The notes below the pieces were generated by a model. That model did not search any database. It was not told the origin of the DNA and was given only the letters and a program-made list of their open reading frames with translations. Of a stretch of 64,000 bases of DNA, positions 2,386 to 62,090 are shown one piece after another. The first letter of the stretch is position 1; the number at the start of each line of letters is the position of its first letter. A program made the translations under genes and the position numbers. The stretch is from Candidatus Campbellbacteria bacterium. Lineage in GTDB: Bacteria > Patescibacteriota > Minisyncoccia > Phycocordibacterales > UBA1006. The stretch covers positions 4,347 to 68,346 of the forward strand of contig NZWR01000004.1 of the NCBI GenBank assembly GCA_002698305.1. Direction: 5' to 3'.

Positions 2386-3732
2386 TTATTTTTGAGACAA
2401 GATAAAATCACGCTCCATATCTTGCTTATTAAAACGATATCCTTCTCCTAGCATTTCAGTTACCGTCTCTGCATCTCGCATTCCGTTATACAAACACACT
2501 GAAGCTCCTGGAGAAGGCGTCATATTAAAAATGATATTATCTCCTATAATTTTTCCTTCGCCTAATTCAAGTGATTGGTTGTGAACATCAACTCTTTGAA
2601 GTCTCATACCACCAACACCTTTTCCAAGTCGTAAATCAGAAGCGGAGATTGATGGGACAATCTTTTTTACATTTTTAACAAATAATCGCTTCCCTATCCA
2701 TGGAATATCGTAACTTGCGCTCTTAAGAAAATATAAAAATCGAGTTCTATCAAACATTATTTTTGTTAACGCTTTAATAGCTTTCCATCTCCCTAAACTT
2801 GCTGATTTAAAGTAATCACCCATAGTCGACCATTTACCATCCTCAAGAACAGGATAAAATTTTGCTGTAGGTCCCCATCTTGTTGTATTGGGAACGAGAA
2901 TATCTGGATCGCCATGCACTCCCGCAAAGGGCAACTTTCTATCTTGCATTGGATACACCTTACCCTTCAATACTTCGTGGGTATAGTAAAAATTCGCACC
3001 AACAGGCACCAATGAGTATTCCTCCCCGTATCCCATTTGTTTTGCTAATAGTAAACTATATGAATCAGCGCAAACGATAACCACTTGTGCTTGAAATACA
3101 TGACTATTATTCATTTGAATATGATATGTCTCGTTATTTTTTGTTATCTTCGTCACCTCATGATTAAGAAAAACATCAGCATCTCTATTATAATTTACAG
3201 CTTCTTCAACAAAAGACTCAGACAAAGCTTGGTAATTAACCGCATGGCCGTCTGGGTTATATAAGGCTAAAATTGGTACATTAGGATTCCTATCTTTTGT
3301 AATATTGGGTTCTAAGCTTTGAATTTCATCTCTTTCTATTATTCGCTGATTTGGAAATAGTCCTTCAAACTCCTTAAAGCGTTCTTTCATCTCTTCAACC
3401 TCGCTTTTACCAACAGCCAAAGCCATTTTTTGAATCTTTTTTAGGATTGTTTCTGACTGTTGGGTGTTTAATGTTTTTAGATACTCTGGAATCATCATGG
3501 CTGCAGGCTTTACCTTCTCAGCTTTTTCTCGGGTATAGTGCATTTCAATATCTCCAACATGCAGTGACTGACTGTTATTACGTCCATGTGAATTTACTGA
3601 ACCTAGTTCACCATACTTTTCTACAAGTGCTAATGAACTAATATTAGAATACTTCGCTAAGGTATAGAGCAGAGCTGTTCCTGATGCTCCACCTCCAATG
3701 ATAAGTACATCGTATTTTTTTATTTCTTTCAT
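2386..3732 (-). CDS. FAD-dependent oxidoreductase, malate:quinone oxidoreductase (Mqo)-like
   Basis: 448 aa. N-terminal Rossmann motif YDVLIIGGGASGTALL followed by NSHGRNNSQSLHVGDIEMHYT, which resembles the Mqo motif (NAWNNAGTGHSALCELNYT). Family assignment is from memory only. Confidence 0.5.
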   Translation of the reverse strand: MKEIKKYDVLIIGGGASGTALLYTLAKYSNISSLALVEKYGELGSVNSHGRNNSQSLHVGDIEMHYTREKAEKVKPAAMMIPEYLKTLNTQQSETILKKIQKMALAVGKSEVEEMKERFKEFEGLFPNQRIIERDEIQSLEPNITKDRNPNVPILALYNPDGHAVNYQALSESFVEEAVNYNRDADVFLNHEVTKITKNNETYHIQMNNSHVFQAQVVIVCADSYSLLLAKQMGYGEEYSLVPVGANFYYTHEVLKGKVYPMQDRKLPFAGVHGDPDILVPNTTRWGPTAKFYPVLEDGKWSTMGDYFKSASLGRWKAIKALTKIMFDRTRFLYFLKSASYDIPWIGKRLFVKNVKKIVPSISASDLRLGKGVGGMRLQRVDVHNQSLELGEGKIIGDNIIFNMTPSPGASVCLYNGMRDAETVTEMLGEGYRFNKQDMERDFILSQK

Positions 3733-7730: not shown

Positions 7731-8942
7731 TTATCTATACTTTTCATGTGTATTTTTCAGTTTATTATATTCATCCACAAATATCTTAATGAACTCAGTG
7801 CACTGTTTCTTGGTACTCTCTCTACCAAGTGAAATACGCAGTGATTCAGTATTATTTTCTCGCATAGCTTTAATTACATGAGAATCTCCTTCGGTATCAG
7901 ATTTACACGCCGATTTTGCGCTTATCATAAAACCGCGTGCATCCATTCGTATTACCATTTCTTCATGTGAAATATCGGGCACTGTTATATTAAGAATATT
8001 AGGTAGTTTCGATGCTGCAGATGAATTAACAAACATATTAGGAATTACCTTTTTCAATTCTTCTTCGATATATTGAACAAGTGGCGCTAGTTTTTTTGAA
8101 AAAACTTCTCGTGATTCACGAGCTATTTCTGCTGCAGTAACAAGCCCAATAATTCCTGGTACATTTTCTGTTCCTGGTCTTAATCCGCTTTCTTGTCCTC
8201 CCCCTACGATTACAGGATTAATCATATCTCTATCTTTAATAAAAGCTGCTGCTGTTTTTTTAGGACCGTACATTTTTGATCCACTAACGATACATACGTC
8301 ACAGCCAAGCGATGGCATGCGCACATCAGCAACATACTGAAACGCTTGCACCGCATCAACATGCAAAAGTGGATACCGGGAATTAAATTCTTTTCTCTTT
8401 TTTCGTATTAACTTAGCAACTTGCCGAACATCATGAACTGTTCCTATCTCACCATTAGCATATCCAATACTAACTAAAACAGTATTTTCTTTAATGAACT
8501 TTTTTAGCTCTTCATAGTTATAATCAGCAGATACAGCAAGAGGTAATAAATCATACTCAATCTCCCCTCTCTCACCTAGCATCTTTACAGATTCAATCGT
8601 AGACGAATGGTCACCAGCTCCAATAACAATGTGTGGTTTAGTGTTTGGATTTTCTGAAATATATCTATCGATAATCCCAAGTATTATCAGATTATTTGCT
8701 TCGGTTGCTCCATCATAAAAAACAATCGTATTTGGGCGCGCGTCAATAAGGTGTGCAAAAGCTCCACGAGCCTGCTCTACATCCTTTTTAACATCTACAG
8801 CTTCTTTGTATAAGGCGCTTGGGTTATGAAAATAGCTGCTAAAGTATGGCTTCATCGCGGTTACTACCTTTTGATTGATTGGCGTGGTTGATGCGTGGTC
8901 AAAAAAGACTCTTTTTTTTCTTGTAGAAAATAATGACAACAT
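7731..8942 (-). CDS. Cysteine desulfurase / class V aminotransferase (NifS/IscS-like)
   Basis: 403 aa. HVDAVQA..IVSGSKMYGPKK (PLP-lysine region) and the active-site loop SAKSACKSD. Confidence 0.8.
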   Translation of the reverse strand: MLSLFSTRKKRVFFDHASTTPINQKVVTAMKPYFSSYFHNPSALYKEAVDVKKDVEQARGAFAHLIDARPNTIVFYDGATEANNLIILGIIDRYISENPNTKPHIVIGAGDHSSTIESVKMLGERGEIEYDLLPLAVSADYNYEELKKFIKENTVLVSIGYANGEIGTVHDVRQVAKLIRKKRKEFNSRYPLLHVDAVQAFQYVADVRMPSLGCDVCIVSGSKMYGPKKTAAAFIKDRDMINPVIVGGGQESGLRPGTENVPGIIGLVTAAEIARESREVFSKKLAPLVQYIEEELKKVIPNMFVNSSAASKLPNILNITVPDISHEEMVIRMDARGFMISAKSACKSDTEGDSHVIKAMRENNTESLRISLGRESTKKQCTEFIKIFVDEYNKLKNTHEKYR

Positions 8943-9018
8943 ATAATTATGATAGATGACGTAACAAGTAATGCAACAAGATATTGATAATTAACGTATC
9001 TGCGCTAGTATCTGATAT

Positions 9019-51892: not shown

Positions 51893-52090
51893 ACTTTTAG
51901 TATACCATGTGAAATGAGTGTGGTTACTTAATTACAAGAGGTTTACTGCTTACTACACCTCAAGAGTACTTGTAAAACATAATCGCTACTACTCTTTGTT
52001 TTTGAGCCCGCTTCCAGTATAAACTTGATGGAGTAGCCAAGGTCTCAAAAATATAAAAACCGAAACGCCTTGCGTTTCGGTTTGCAGTTG

Positions 52091-52177
52091 CGGAGAGTAA
52101 GGGATTCGAACCCTTGAAACCTTTGACAGTTTACTTCGTTAGCAGTGAAGCGCTTTCGACCACTCAGCCAACTCTCC
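52091..52177 (-). tRNA. tRNA-Ser (anticodon GCT)
   Basis: Acceptor GGAGAGT/ACTCTCC, loop CTGCTAA, long variable arm, T-arm AAGGG-TTCGAAT-CCCTT, discriminator G. Confidence 0.88.
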
Positions 52178-52194: not shown

Positions 52195-52316
52195 TGAAGA
52201 GTGGTCGAACCAGTTCGCCTGTTTTGATCTGATCATGTACATTCACAACGATCAATCACTTCGCGACCACCTGAAACGATACGCAGGTATCCTTTCAGCC
52301 ACTCAGCCAACTCTCC
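52195..52316 (-). other. Aberrant 122-nt tRNA-Ser-like element (not a foldable canonical tRNA)
   Basis: The first 18 nt are identical to tRNA-Ser, and 23 of the first 27 match. The 3' end ACTCTTC-A pairs with the 5' GGAGAGT. Internally it has a 12-bp hairpin and a GGTCG/CGACC helix instead of anticodon and T arms. Confidence 0.4.
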
Positions 52317-57410: not shown

Positions 57411-57484
57411 TGCGCCTATAGCTCAATTGGCTAGAGCGCCGAGCTTATTCCTCGGATGTTGGGGGTTCGAGTCCCTCTGGGCGT
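57411..57484 (+). tRNA. tRNA with anticodon TAT (nominally Ile) and a non-canonical anticodon loop
   Basis: Acceptor GCGCCTA/TGGGCGT (G1:U72 wobble), perfect stem CCGAG/CTCGG, loop CTTATTC (U37, C38), T-arm GGGGG-TTCGAGT-CCCTC. Confidence 0.6.
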
Positions 57485-57551
57485 ACTAAAAATTTTAGAA
57501 CATAACGCGTTGCGTTATGTTCTTTAATTTTCTACGCCCAGAGGGACTCGA
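57465..57551. repeat. 87-nt near-perfect palindrome built on the 3' end of the tRNA(UAU)
   Basis: The 20-nt ttcgagtccctctgggcgta (57465-57484) recurs as a perfect inverted copy at 57532-57551. The centre is a 12-bp hairpin at 57496-57522. Confidence 0.9.
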
Positions 57552-59748: not shown

Positions 59749-59823
59749 AGTTTCGATTATAGCTATTCCCTGTGTACGTGCAATCAATATGGATGATGTT
59801 ATTAGTTTAGGTATACTACGAAT

Positions 59824-60267
59824 ATGAATTTACTCGTGAATAAAACCTTACGGCAAAAATATGAAGTGCTTGATACCTATGAATCGGGAATAAAACTCTC
59901 TGGCTGGGAGGTTAAAAGCTTGCGGCAAAAGCATGGCTCACTGAAAGAAGCCTATATTTCAGTTGATGCTGAGGTTTGGTTAAAAAACTGTTTTATTCCA
60001 ATATACCAACCTGGACACAAAGACCATGAAGGTCTTGATCCATATCAGCAAAGAAAATTGTTACTGAAGAATAAGGAAATTGAAAAAATATATGCACAGC
60101 AAAAACAACAAGGTCTCACTGTTGTACCTGTCCGCATCTATGAAAAAGAAAATCTTATTAAAATAGAAATTGCTGTAGCACGAGGGAAAAAATTGTATGA
60201 TAAGCGTAAAGATATGAGGGATAGAACAAGCAAAAGAGACGCCGAGCGAGCTGCAAAGAACTTTTGA
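59824..60267 (+). CDS. smpB: SsrA-binding protein SmpB
   Basis: 147 aa, YETGIKLSGWEVKSLR..IAVARGKKLYDKR. Confidence 0.92.
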   Translation: MNLLVNKTLRQKYEVLDTYESGIKLSGWEVKSLRQKHGSLKEAYISVDAEVWLKNCFIPIYQPGHKDHEGLDPYQQRKLLLKNKEIEKIYAQQKQQGLTVVPVRIYEKENLIKIEIAVARGKKLYDKRKDMRDRTSKRDAERAAKNF

Positions 60268-60286
60268 TTTTATTTTAATAAGATAC

Positions 60287-60314
60287 TTGACATATTAATT
60301 TTGAAGTGTATATT
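60287..60314 (+). promoter_or_regulatory. Strong sigma70-like promoter with no obvious gene
   Basis: TTGACA (60287-60292), 16 nt, TATATT (60309-60314). The next terminator is at 60446-60477. Confidence 0.45.
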
Positions 60315-60445
60315 TATGTTAATTCATTCACATATTGTTTATGAAGGAGGGTAATTCCTCAAAAAATAAAATAACTTAAATATCAGGAAATGAAAAAATA
60401 CCTGAGATCAAAATTTAACATCAAAAAGATCCCGAATTAAGGATT

Positions 60446-60477
60446 AAAACCATGTCTACACAACATGGTTTTATTTT
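60446..60477 (+). terminator. Rho-independent terminator
   Basis: aaccatgt-ctacaca-acatggtt followed by ttatttt. Confidence 0.6.
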
Positions 60478-60502
60478 ATATGAATGATTGCGTAGCTCCT
60501 TT

Positions 60503-60650
60503 AAACAGTTCTCAAAAAATTAACAAGTCTTGCAGCTATTTTTTATGCATCACGATGATATGTAGTTCTCCTTAACCTACCTCGACTACGCTCGAAGAGG
60601 TCTCAGACAGTCCGCAGGCCATACTTTATTCTCTTGTATGGTATTTTTAT
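60503..60650 (+). other. Possible decayed partial copy of the ssrA upstream/5' region, ending in a terminator
   Basis: AAACAGTTCTCAAAAAATT (60503-60521) matches AAACAATTCTCAAGAATT (60728-60745). Loosely collinear blocks ACAAGTCTTGCAGCTA, GTAGTTCTCCTTAAC and a hairpin follow. There is a terminator hairpin at 60619-60648. Confidence 0.3.
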
Positions 60651-60751
60651 TTGAGTATCATATATTACATAGCTCGCTCTGCCTGCTTCGCTGTCGCTCA
60701 GATTGGCAGTTACAGGCAACCGCGCTCAAACAATTCTCAAGAATTGTTTTC

Positions 60752-61130
60752 GGGGATGACAGGCTTCGCTAAGAAGATTGTTGTTCCTTAATTGCATATC
60801 GTGATTGACGCGATCACGTTAAACAGTGTCACTCCTTAAATGGAAAATCAATTGCTTCACCCTACAAGGTGAACACTCTAGCAATCGCGTAACAAACCTC
60901 GCGGCTAGTGCACCCTACCCTAATGTTCATACGGGGTAATGGTGTATCATAACCTTTGAACTAGATAGATAGAGCTTTCTCCTCTATCCACTCGAAGTAC
61001 AGAAGAATCGAGTAACTATCGCTTTTGTTTATCTTTTAGATAACTTGCTCTAAATAAATTAAGGTAGACTATATATGTAGACGTTAAGGGATTTCCTTTT
61101 TACACGGCGGTTCGATTCCGCCCATCTCCA
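60752..61130 (+). ncRNA. ssrA: tmRNA (SsrA), one-piece
   Basis: The 5' GGGGATG pairs with the 3' CATCTCC, including G3:U70. T-arm GGCGG-TTCGATT-CCGCC, discriminator A. The internal tag frame ends ..NTLAIA-TAA (stop 60890-60892). Adjacent to smpB. Confidence 0.85.
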
Positions 61131-61137
61131 CATCGGG

Positions 61138-61164
61138 AGAGCCATCTTCGGATGGTTCTTTTTT
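61138..61164 (+). terminator. Terminator after ssrA
   Basis: agagccatc-ttcg-gatggttct followed by a T-run. Confidence 0.7.
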
Positions 61165-61180
61165 AAGTTATACTATATAT

Positions 61181-61543
61181 ATGAAAAATTTTTTGAAAAA
61201 ATATTGGCCGTATATTATCATTGCAATTATTCTACTTCAGACATTGAGGTATAAATTTACTGCTCACCCTGAATCAGTCGCATTATTTACAGAACTATCC
61301 CTCTTTGGACAATCTGAAGCATATGGAAGAATTGGATCTGGTATCGTAGAACTTCTCGTAGCTATTGGCCTCTTTATTAGGCCATTGCGTCAGATTTCTC
61401 TCCTTGGTGTTGTTACTTTGATGGGTGGTGCATTATATTTCCATATTACAAAACTTGGATTTGAAGGAAACAACTTACCTCTTGCAATCTCAGCTGGAGT
61501 AGCATTAGTTTTAGCAACATATACATTGGCGCGTAAAAAATAG
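61181..61543 (+). CDS. DoxX-like membrane protein
   Basis: 120 aa with about 4 TM helices. LRYKFTAHPESVALFTEL..GRIGSGIVELLVAIGL. Confidence 0.5.
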   Translation: MKNFLKKYWPYIIIAIILLQTLRYKFTAHPESVALFTELSLFGQSEAYGRIGSGIVELLVAIGLFIRPLRQISLLGVVTLMGGALYFHITKLGFEGNNLPLAISAGVALVLATYTLARKK

Positions 61544-61655: not shown

Positions 61656-62090
61656 ATGAAAAAATATTTAAAATTCTTGCCACAGGTATTATTTGCAGCG
61701 GGACTCCTCTTTATTGGAGCCATTGGAAAACTAACAGGGGCAGAACCTGCTGTTGCAATGTTTCAACAAATTAACTTGTTTGAACAAGGTGAAGCATTTG
61801 GGCGCATCCTTGTAGGTCTAACTCAGTTATTCGCAGCCATTGGTGTATTCTTTAGACCAACACGTAAAATTGCAGCGCTAGCTGGTATCGTCACCATGAT
61901 TGGTGCAATTTACTTCCACTTAACTCTTTTCGGTGGAACAATAATAATGCCAGTAATTGTTCTTCTTCTTGGCGCTTGGATTTTTATCAAAGGAGGGTGT
62001 GGATGCTGTGGTAATAAGTGTGGTTCAAAAAATTGCACAAGTGGAACGTGTTCAGTAGAAGAACCTGAATCACACGAATCTACAGAATAA
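61656..62090 (+). CDS. DoxX-like membrane protein paralog with a Cys-rich C-terminal tail
   Basis: 144 aa with the same fold pattern (GKLTGAEPAVAMFQQI..GRILVGLTQLFAAIGV), plus the tail KGGCGCCGNKCGSKNCTSGTCS. Confidence 0.5.
   Translation: MKKYLKFLPQVLFAAGLLFIGAIGKLTGAEPAVAMFQQINLFEQGEAFGRILVGLTQLFAAIGVFFRPTRKIAALAGIVTMIGAIYFHLTLFGGTIIMPVIVLLLGAWIFIKGGCGCCGNKCGSKNCTSGTCSVEEPESHESTE

Follow-up and report, generated by a model that had tools for sequence, protein, structure and literature searches.

The smpB-ssrA spacer of a Candidatus Campbellbacteria genome probably holds one live and two to three fossil tmRNA promoter-leader cassettes

Introduction

Why does a genome that leaves little room between its genes keep almost five hundred nucleotides (nt) between smpB and ssrA? 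We examined this question in a 64-kb stretch of DNA (hereafter the window) from Candidatus Campbellbacteria (Paceibacteria, Patescibacteria), part of a marine metagenome-assembled genome, in which the gene of the SsrA-binding protein, smpB, is followed by ssrA, the gene of transfer-messenger RNA (tmRNA). The spacer between the two (60268-60751) measures 484 nt and is the largest of the 64 gaps in the window, whose median is 51 nt; its unusual length had already been remarked in an earlier interpretation made from the letters alone (the sequence-only reading), which saw in it promoter-to-terminator modules and a possible decayed copy of the ssrA 5' end. We find that the spacer is indeed composed of promoter-to-terminator modules, and that these probably represent one live and two to three fossil ssrA promoter-leader cassettes, together with one orphan promoter-terminator unit.

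The contig of the window is also present in TARA and other marine assemblies, and the ten metagenomic copies of the locus are 100% identical from smpB to ssrA. The comparison with other genomes covers 12 related lineages in all: L001, L002, L097, L098 and L100-L105, and a later, out-of-sample lineage (L106-L109). The nearest other SmpB proteins are at most 72% identical to that of the window.

Results

Aligning the smpB-ssrA spacers of the relatives, which the sequence-only reading had proposed as a check, reveals a conserved cassette whose helices covary. These spacers are visibly modular, with a repeated unit of about 130 nt 5' of ssrA. The unit begins with a hairpin and T-run, the 3' arm of the hairpin forming the -35 element (TTGTAT or TTTACG), and continues with a -10 element, TATCAT, 16 nt after the -35, in which the TAnnnT positions are conserved. 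A conserved leader stretch of about 85 nt follows, containing a covarying helix, and the unit closes with a covarying hairpin that abuts the GGGG, or G1, of the tmRNA. A single unit is present in L001, L103, L105 and L097, two in L098, L100, L101, L104 and L106, and three in L102, and five leader types can be told apart (Ia, Ib, Ic, II and III). Every upstream copy in the relatives ends in the loop or the 3' arm of the last hairpin, and the hairpin and T-run of the next unit then follow directly.

A nhmmer profile trained on ssrA-proximal leaders only, with the upstream copies unseen in training, recovered the upstream copies of L100 (E = 1.7e-14), L102 (1.8e-12) and L098 (2.3e-12), as well as partial copies in L101 and L104. 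In the out-of-sample lineage it found the proximal copy at E = 1e-16 to 8e-23 and an upstream copy at 5e-8. Matches of the cassette profile in the relatives range overall from 1e-11 to 1e-24, and no match was found elsewhere in the 64-kb window. Rfam release 15 returned no family at E <= 10 on the window spacer, and the cassettes of five relatives gave none at E <= 1; the exceptions, at permissive thresholds, were chance hairpin matches (a plant microRNA, a plastid untranslated region). Literature searches turned up no relevant description of a tmRNA leader or cassette from Patescibacteria.

In the window, the cassette that adjoins ssrA (M3, 60619-60751) is complete. Its head hairpin (60618-60642) has a 7-bp stem and an 11-nt loop, which is over the limit of our terminator scan, folds at -8.6 kcal/mol (z = -2.8) and is followed by TATTTTTATTT. 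The sequence-only reading had noticed this second hairpin with its T-run, which does fold, but had missed the ssrA promoter, of which the hairpin and T-run double as -35 and spacer. The promoter consists of the -35 TTGTAT (60634-39) and the -10 TATCAT (60656-61); at 8 of 12 consensus positions it lies under the cut-off of the promoter scan. Across 11 lineages, T1 and T6 of the -10 are invariant and A2 nearly so, in an upstream part that is otherwise variable, and with this conservation and its sigma-70 spacing 60634-60661 is a predicted promoter. A sister promoter of the form TTGnAT-16-TATCAT (8976-8949, minus strand) fronts a leaderless gene, with the ATG starting 7 nt past the -10, and we therefore place the start of the cassette transcript near 60668.

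Genes of this kind appear to be common in the window. The genes there lack Shine-Dalgarno sequences (e.g. 59806-59826, 61163-61183, 8942-8976), and many have a -10 box (TATACT, TATCAT or TATAAT) ending 6 nt 5' of the ATG, which implies widespread leaderless mRNAs.

The predicted leader ends in hairpin B, which folds at -6.9 kcal/mol (z = -5.2) and in which 10 of the 12 aligned pairs show compensatory changes across 11 lineages. We scored this hairpin together with the helix P2 of the leader by RNAalifold and pair counting: 91.8% of the cells are paired and 15 of 17 pairs have changed on both sides, while none of 500 shuffles did as well and slid controls reached 28-51%. P2 alone is 94% paired over 14 copies, four of them upstream copies. 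Helices with such compensatory changes across lineages mark the predicted leader as a structured cis-acting RNA.

These results bear on the three hairpins with T-runs that the sequence-only reading had listed. All three fold as described, but only the first is called terminator-like by the scan. The third, hairpin B, had been placed 1 nt before the tmRNA 5' end; the gap to G1 is in fact 2 nt. It has only one G-C pair and carries T's inside the stem, unlike an intrinsic terminator, and its orthologues in L001, L098, L103, L104 and L106 are directly followed by GGGG, with no T-run. Hairpin B is instead a conserved, covarying leader hairpin. As a negative control we inspected 23 tmRNA loci of distant, unrelated bacteria, taken from a metagenome scan with SmpB alignment (SmpB identity 40-49%), and in none of the 23 does a hairpin abut the tmRNA G1. 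Thus, the abutting hairpin is specific to this lineage.

Several further ideas on the leader were set aside. Individual folds show a closing helix P1 and an inner hairpin P3, but these align inconsistently between cassette types, and we do not claim them as consensus elements. An alternative ssrA promoter within hairpin B (AAGAAT, 7 nt before G1) has no -35 and is not conserved in the relatives. A self-cleaving ribozyme at the junction of leader and tmRNA was rejected, there being no Rfam ribozyme match and only five invariant columns outside the promoter and the tmRNA. We also compared G-U with C-A pairs to tell selection at the RNA level from selection at the DNA level on the hairpins, but the numbers were too low, and too even, to decide.

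Based on these features, M3 would work as follows. The head hairpin and T-run would stop transcription arriving from upstream, the 3' arm of the same hairpin serving as the -35 and its T-run as the 16-nt spacer of the ssrA promoter. Transcription from near 60668 would give a leader of about 84 nt, made of a long stem and hairpin B, and cleavage by RNase P at 60751/60752 would free the tmRNA. The transcription start, the cleavage by RNase P and the terminator activity in this scheme are what we infer, as are the mechanism and direction of cassette turnover discussed below.

Upstream of M3, the core of a second cassette (M2) can be recognised by pairwise alignment. Its stretch 60538-60602 matches the cassette of L103 at z = 5.9 (z = 6.8 in global alignment) and the upstream copy L100A at z = 3.8, and its end, 60595-60618 (CTCAGACAGTCCGCAGG), is identical to the arm of the proximal hairpin of L100B at 21 of 24 positions (z = 5.9). 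M2 is visibly decayed: its -10 is destroyed (CATCAC for TATCAT), 16 nt have been lost from its interior, and its fold is no more stable than that of shuffles (z = +0.8), as opposed to z = -3.0 for the M3 leader.

Further upstream lies M1, the oldest cassette that can still be recognised. It begins with terminator 1, whose hairpin (60445-60473; 11 pairs, -12.3 kcal/mol, z = -4.2) is the only one of the three spacer hairpins that the scan calls terminator-like, has the properties of an intrinsic terminator, and is homologous to the AAACCATTGTATGGTTTTT hairpins that head cassettes in L001, L101 and L102 (p = 0.008-0.03). After this hairpin and T-run come a decayed promoter (CAACAT-16-AATGAT), the short GCTC piece GCGTAGCTCC, an internal deletion of the same kind as in the upstream copy of L104, and the left arm and loop of the leader hairpin (60503-60521). 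The terminator and the half hairpin match the relatives at p = 0.008-0.02. Single pieces reach only p ~0.01-0.03, and we call M1 because of the order in which they occur. Directly after the smpB stop, M0 may be the trace of a fourth and oldest cassette; this is tentative. It is identical to the L102C sequence 'TTTATTTTAGTATCATACATAACATA' at 21 of 26 positions (z = 3.3, which is weak after allowing for 13 comparisons), and is 74% identical to 60645-60671 of the window itself. By alignment, M2 and M3 and the pieces of M1 are thus homologous to the cassettes of the relatives. With M3 intact and M2 and M1 progressively damaged, decay grows with distance from ssrA, as seen in dead -10 boxes, internal deletions and loss of fold.

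This arrangement also accounts for the repeat on which the sequence-only reading had based its pseudo-ssrA, namely that the 16-18-mer just 5' of ssrA recurs at 60503-60521. The recurrence stands (60503-60518 and 60728-60743 are identical at 14 of 16 positions), and alone it is modestly above chance (p = 0.013-0.02). The upstream repeat is the left arm, with loop, of leader hairpin B in M1. It appears very improbable that duplication of the gene start left a decayed ssrA 5' region at 60495-60620. A gapped match (ACAAGTCTTGCAGCTA with ACAGGCTTCGCTA) can be drawn by eye, and such duplications do occur here, since a true 5' fragment of the tRNA-Ser gene is duplicated upstream of that gene in the window. 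Alignment of the stretch after the repeat to the tmRNA body (within 60746-60880), on the other hand, is at chance, both locally (z = 1.3, p = 0.14) and globally (60522-60600 against 60746-60830; z = 0.85, p = 0.20), and the shared 9-mer TTAAACAGT, which had been offered as a further sign, is merely the best chance match of that comparison. A cmscan search of 60200-60800 at E <= 10 detected only the 5' end of the true gene and no second tmRNA-like stretch, giving no support for a pseudo-copy of tmRNA (RF00023) at 60495-60620. The same DNA aligns to the leader cassettes of the relatives at z = 5.9-6.8, and in the arrays of seven relatives the upstream copies likewise end in the leader hairpin, without GGGGATGA. 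No GGGGATGAC motif was found elsewhere. What had been read as a duplicate of the ssrA 5' end is therefore a duplication of the sequence that adjoins ssrA, in the form of two decayed promoter-leader cassettes.

That there is nothing here but AT-rich filler, with hairpins, a promoter-like match and short repeats arising by chance, is the least credible account. Promoter-like sites of at least 9/12 are no commoner than in shuffles (10 versus 11.1) and several of the repeats in the region are short and AT-rich, as such an account would have it, but it would leave unexplained the strength of the profile matches across lineages, the compensatory changes in the two helices, the conserved -10 positions and the M2 alignments.

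The relatives also indicate how such a stack may have been built. L100, with the order Ic-II-ssrA, is sister to L103, with Ic-ssrA, in both SmpB and FtsH trees, and the closest tmRNA to that of L100 is that of L103 (85%). The type Ic cassette of L103 has a complete hairpin B, while in that of L100 only GGGGA of the 3' arm is left, so that it was the L100 lineage that gained a type II cassette beside ssrA. In the other two closest tmRNA pairs, L098/L101 and L001/L105 (both 88%), the proximal cassette types differ as well. The order of types varies, II then Ib in L106 as opposed to Ib or Ic then II in L102 and L100, and truncation points differ between arrays (after GCA, GCAG, GCAGG, GGGA or GGGGA). 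Type order, the gain in one of two sister genomes and the differing truncations together argue that new cassettes have repeatedly been placed at the 5' border of ssrA. Residents would then have been pushed upstream and have decayed; M2, M1 and perhaps M0 would be older copies, truncated in hairpin B and displaced by later cassettes.

Two variants of this history were considered and rejected. A fixed ancestral array (III-I-II) with differential loss does not fit L106, which has II upstream of Ib, and under such a history L103 must, in addition, have restored the 3' arm of its hairpin B. Transfer of the ssrA 5' end together with the type II cassette into L100 gave no signal: over the first 60 columns the L100 tmRNA is closest to that of its sister L103, and over the first 120 L103 ties with L102 (105/110 each).

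Alternatively, the upstream copies could be a tandem family of functional small RNAs (sRNAs), leader paralogues with promoters of their own, each ended by the terminator of the next cassette. In the copies L098A, L100A and L102B the -10 is good (TAATAT or TATCAT) and the P2 helix intact, and their identity to proximal copies in other genomes is 81-92%, compared with 78-85% for the tmRNAs; having lost the 3' arm of hairpin B, type I copies, moreover, still have an alternative hairpin (GCGGG..CCCGC). The high identity is just as well explained if a strongly conserved proximal leader was displaced recently, and the dead promoters, internal deletions and lack of excess fold of M2 and M1, the truncated or broken state of L101A, L104A, L106A and L102A, and the free variation of copy number and type order between genomes make a functional family unlikely.

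In the relatives, the smpB-ssrA interval is a hot spot of variable small genes, which always lie 5' of the oldest cassette (L002 4447-4743; L094 2946-3176; L097 2977-3609; L101 1816-2529; L104 2981-3930; L105 2970-3887; L103 2950-3023; L106 2997-3227). These cargo genes include a GIY-YIG nuclease (in L002, Pfam E = 3.4e-12), DUF1653 and DUF2071 proteins, an unknown 210-aa open reading frame (ORF), a 2OG-Fe(II) oxygenase and a tRNA-Thr.

Such a hot spot also brings to mind integrative elements, and the stack could consist of attachment-site scars, left by an integrase-borne element that repeatedly integrated in hairpin B, brought a new promoter-leader each time and later lost its body. Same-orientation, displaced and increasingly decayed fragments beside a tmRNA gene do resemble the arrays at tRNA and tmRNA genes, and hairpin B, an inverted repeat around a short core, is shaped like a recombinase site. 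Displacement of a 5' fragment to the upstream side has been recorded for a small minority of islands (159 of 3,919 in Islander; PMC4383910). We find this origin improbable, about as much as a functional sRNA family, as no integrase gene was found near ssrA in the window or among the called genes of any examined flank, and no element body in any of nine junctions, where copies lie 0-40 nt apart. The cargo genes stand 5' of the oldest copy and never between copies, the displaced pieces contain no tmRNA sequence and so are not gene fragments in the sense of Islander, and the varied truncation points are unlike a fixed crossover site.

Within the preferred reading of a live cassette with fossils, the ~130-nt unit may itself be a cassette that moves laterally in Campbellbacteria-like Patescibacteria and lands again and again at one spot, on the 5' border of ssrA in the 3' arm of the leader hairpin, by a so far undescribed mechanism that would be either targeted to the hairpin or anchored by homology. 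We put this forward tentatively and think it rather more doubtful than not. One end of the recombination event could be fixed by the highly conserved start of ssrA.

The 5' part of the spacer is of a different nature. The near-consensus promoter at 60287-60314, which the sequence-only reading had singled out, matches sigma-70 at 11 of 12 positions with 16-nt spacing, and its activity is predicted from these hexamers. Matches of at least 11/12 arise in ~3% of dinucleotide shuffles of the spacer; in the whole window there are four (shuffles 2.5 +/- 1.6), all with a 16-nt spacer, and the other three each lie 33-40 nt 5' of where a real ORF begins. We regard the promoter at 60287 as probably genuine. 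Behind it, as had been noted, no substantial ORF follows: all three frames are closed and none of at least 20 aa occurs before 60465. The A-rich segment after it (60315-60444) has a positive AT skew, as does the smpB coding stretch just 5'. Six-frame reading detected no relic ORF in the segment, and blastn-short and tblastx found no homologue of 60268-60450 among related lineages or in the rest of the window. Promoter, A-rich stretch of about 130 nt and the intact terminator of M1, at which the orphan unit would end, sit in the slot that holds the cargo genes in the relatives.

This unit could be a species-specific sRNA or the ghost of a deleted gene, and both are possible. That the promoter and terminator 1 make a functional sRNA of about 155 nt, with the fossil cassettes maybe a separate matter, we regard as possible but not the likelier outcome. 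It would be consistent with the quality of the promoter match, the ~3% odds of such a match in the spacer and the 16-nt spacing shared with three promoters that all front real genes, with the strong terminator ~130 nt downstream, with the fold of the 161-nt stretch (z = -2.9), and with the retention of such a spacer in a genome of short gaps. Most of that z-score, however, is contributed by the terminator hairpin; no homologue occurs among the 12 related lineages, the ten identical copies carry no covariation signal, and the leftover promoter and terminator of a deleted cargo gene would explain the unit equally well. The coordinates of all features are collected in Table 1.

Table 1 Features of the smpB-ssrA region of the window
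Feature	Coordinates	Strand	Remarks
smpB (SsrA-binding protein)	59824..60267	+	147-aa ORF; Pfam SmpB on an identical metagenome copy; left border of the spacer
M0, T-run and -10-like remnant	60268..60294	+	directly after smpB stop; tentative, even older cassette
Orphan near-consensus sigma-70 promoter, TTGACA-16-TATATT	60287..60314	+	11/12 match
A-rich orphan segment, candidate sRNA body or ghost of lost cargo gene	60315..60444	+	no open frame, no homologue
Terminator 1, 11-bp hairpin and TTTTATTTTAT	60445..60480	+	terminator scan match; also left end of M1
M1, oldest recognisable fossil cassette	60445..60521	+	collinear pieces match M3 and relatives
M2, second fossil cassette, type Ic-like core	60522..60618	+	ends in left arm and loop CTCAGACAGTCCGCAGG
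M3 head, hairpin GCCATAC/GTATGGT and T-run TATTTTTATTT	60618..60652	+	same arrangement heads cassettes in L001, L101, L102, L104, L106
ssrA promoter, TTGTAT-16-TATCAT	60634..60661	+	exact pattern match; predicted transcription start site near 60668
Structured 5' leader of pre-tmRNA, ~84 nt (predicted)	60668..60751	+	long stem (60671-60726) and hairpin B; minimum free energy -26.9 kcal/mol, z = -3.0
Hairpin B (AAACAATTC / GAATTGTTT)	60728..60749	+	ends 2 nt before tmRNA G1
ssrA (tmRNA), tag ASPYKVNTLAIA*	60752..61131	+	ARAGORN; Rfam RF00023, 106.7 bits
ssrA terminator, 12-bp hairpin and TTTTTT	61135..61165	+	-15.2 kcal/mol, z = -4.3

Discussion

Several points weigh against reading the spacer as a stack of live and fossil cassettes. 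Promoter use, transcription start, termination and processing are all predicted from sequence. Bacterial RNase P substrates do not usually carry a stable hairpin right at the cleavage site, and 5' maturation might work differently here. M2 reaches only E = 0.15 with nhmmer (0.5-Mb database), so that pairwise tests were needed, and the matches behind M1 and M0 are short and modestly significant. As the ten metagenomic copies are identical and the SmpB of the nearest relative is just 72% identical, fine-scale conservation of the fossils in the window is not readable, and the trees are weakly resolved except for the L100-L103 pair. Finally, the intact upstream copies of L098, L100 and L102, given their identity to proximal copies in other genomes, could be functional RNAs rather than relics in those relatives.

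The cassette stack is a variation on known themes: stable-RNA leaders, turnover of regulatory regions, and fragment stacks at tmRNA genes. In the ssrA genes of E. coli and B. subtilis, Komine et al. reportedly described in 1994 a pre-tmRNA 5' leader that is removed by RNase P. As there, the lineage studied here would have a transcribed stretch 5' of G1 to be cut off, from an ssrA promoter downstream of smpB. The leader of E. coli and B. subtilis is a handful of nt, whereas that predicted here is ~84 nt, folded, and has two covarying helices; its last hairpin ends 0-2 nt from the cleavage site, unlike in the 23 distant tmRNA loci. It is a possibility that this abutting hairpin alters maturation of the tmRNA 5' end.

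Tandem displaced fragments of tRNA and tmRNA genes, left by integrase-borne islands, are said to be described by Williams (2003, 'Traffic at the tmRNA gene'). Both those arrays and the stack stand in the same orientation beside the tmRNA gene, with the newest member next to it and older, damaged ones outward. In our case, by contrast, the stack lies on the 5' side and consists of promoter and leader without tmRNA sequence, with varied truncation points, and neither integrase genes nor island bodies between copies were found. Stable-RNA operons such as rrn have tandem promoters, P1 and P2, and the cassettes likewise place promoters in series 5' of a highly expressed stable RNA gene. Here, on the other hand, each upstream promoter is followed by a terminator-like hairpin, and the upstream copies of the window, being inactivated, probably make no contribution to the expression of ssrA.

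Lateral replacement of regulatory regions, reportedly termed 'regulatory switching' by Oren et al. (PNAS, 2014), and homology-facilitated illegitimate recombination, said to have been described by de Vries and Wackernagel in 2002, offer a likeness in process: the promoter type changes between close relatives, and the gene beside it follows vertical descent. At one end, the first 20 nt of ssrA, which do not vary, could provide the homologous anchor. The difference is that the resident region is here kept, truncated, upstream instead of being replaced, and that events recur at one spot in the hairpin.

The cassette model explains the largest non-coding stretch of the window in a streamlined genome and corrects a tempting misreading as a pseudo-tmRNA. 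It describes a previously uncatalogued, covarying tmRNA leader and promoter cassette in an uncultured candidate-phylum lineage, and proposes promoter and processing signals for organisms without experimental mapping; the profile could help to place ssrA starts and promoters in metagenome-assembled Paceibacteria genomes. That the fossils are stacked and differ in type suggests insertion, and not point mutation, as the way in which an essential stable RNA renews its expression signals. If so, the locus would be a compact natural record of regulatory-region replacement, and possibly of a new site-specific insertion process; were the lateral movement of cassettes true, it would be an island-free, 5'-side counterpart of the known traffic at the tmRNA 3' end.

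Additional observations

The SmpB of the window carries the NCBI name SsrA-binding protein, Candidatus Campbellbacteria. The ssrA terminator (61135-61165) has a stable, G+C-containing stem followed by a T-run, as an intrinsic (Rho-independent) terminator does. Just past it, an 18-mer from the 3' part of the tmRNA (TTAAGGTAGACTATATAT, 61059-61076) recurs at 61163-61180 with 89% identity. This second copy forms the -10 region of a leaderless gene at 61181. The similarity goes no further, and the recurrence is probably chance in AT-rich sequence. The gene itself (61181-61543) and its neighbour at 61656-62090 encode small membrane proteins, paralogues with a weak likeness to DoxX (Pfam E = 6e-4 to 3e-3, which does not reach the curated cut-off).

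The tRNA-Ser(GCT) gene mentioned above lies on the minus strand at 52090-52177, and its first 25 nt (52153-52177) are duplicated at 52292-52316, in the same orientation, 139 nt upstream and with 92% identity. A T-loop/acceptor-like GGTTCGACCACTCTTC stands between gene and duplicate, and no tRNA model matches the duplicate region, which looks like what is left of a tRNA-Ser paralogue, or like the 5' fragment that islands of the rare upstream-displacing class leave behind (PMC4383910). Adjoining it, the hairpin CTGAAACGATACGCAGGTATCCTTTCAG (52271-52298) has the base, loop and outline of the type I leader hairpin of the relatives (CTGAAACTTCCCGCAGGGGAAGTTTCAG), the middle being different. It is the only match to that hairpin pattern in 64 kb (0.06 expected; at least one match in 5 of 100 shuffles), and could belong to a palindrome family at the 5' sides of tRNA-like genes or be a coincidence.

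The tmRNA gene of L103 (3223-3760) was missed by ARAGORN and still scores 76.5 bits with Rfam. It has an insertion of ~175 nt at 3516-3690, bounded by 29-nt inverted repeats (90% complementary) and with a second, 22-nt palindrome inside, an arrangement reminiscent of a miniature inverted-repeat element or of an expanded helix in a pseudoknot region. In the flank of another relative, L001, 7715-7841 matches the LOOT RNA (RF03000) at 47.3 bits against a gathering score of 46.4. Near ftsH and smpB, the window also has a tRNA-Ile with the anticodon TAT (UAU) at 57412-57486, as do L001, L002, L096, L103 and L104, which is an unusual means of reading AUA.

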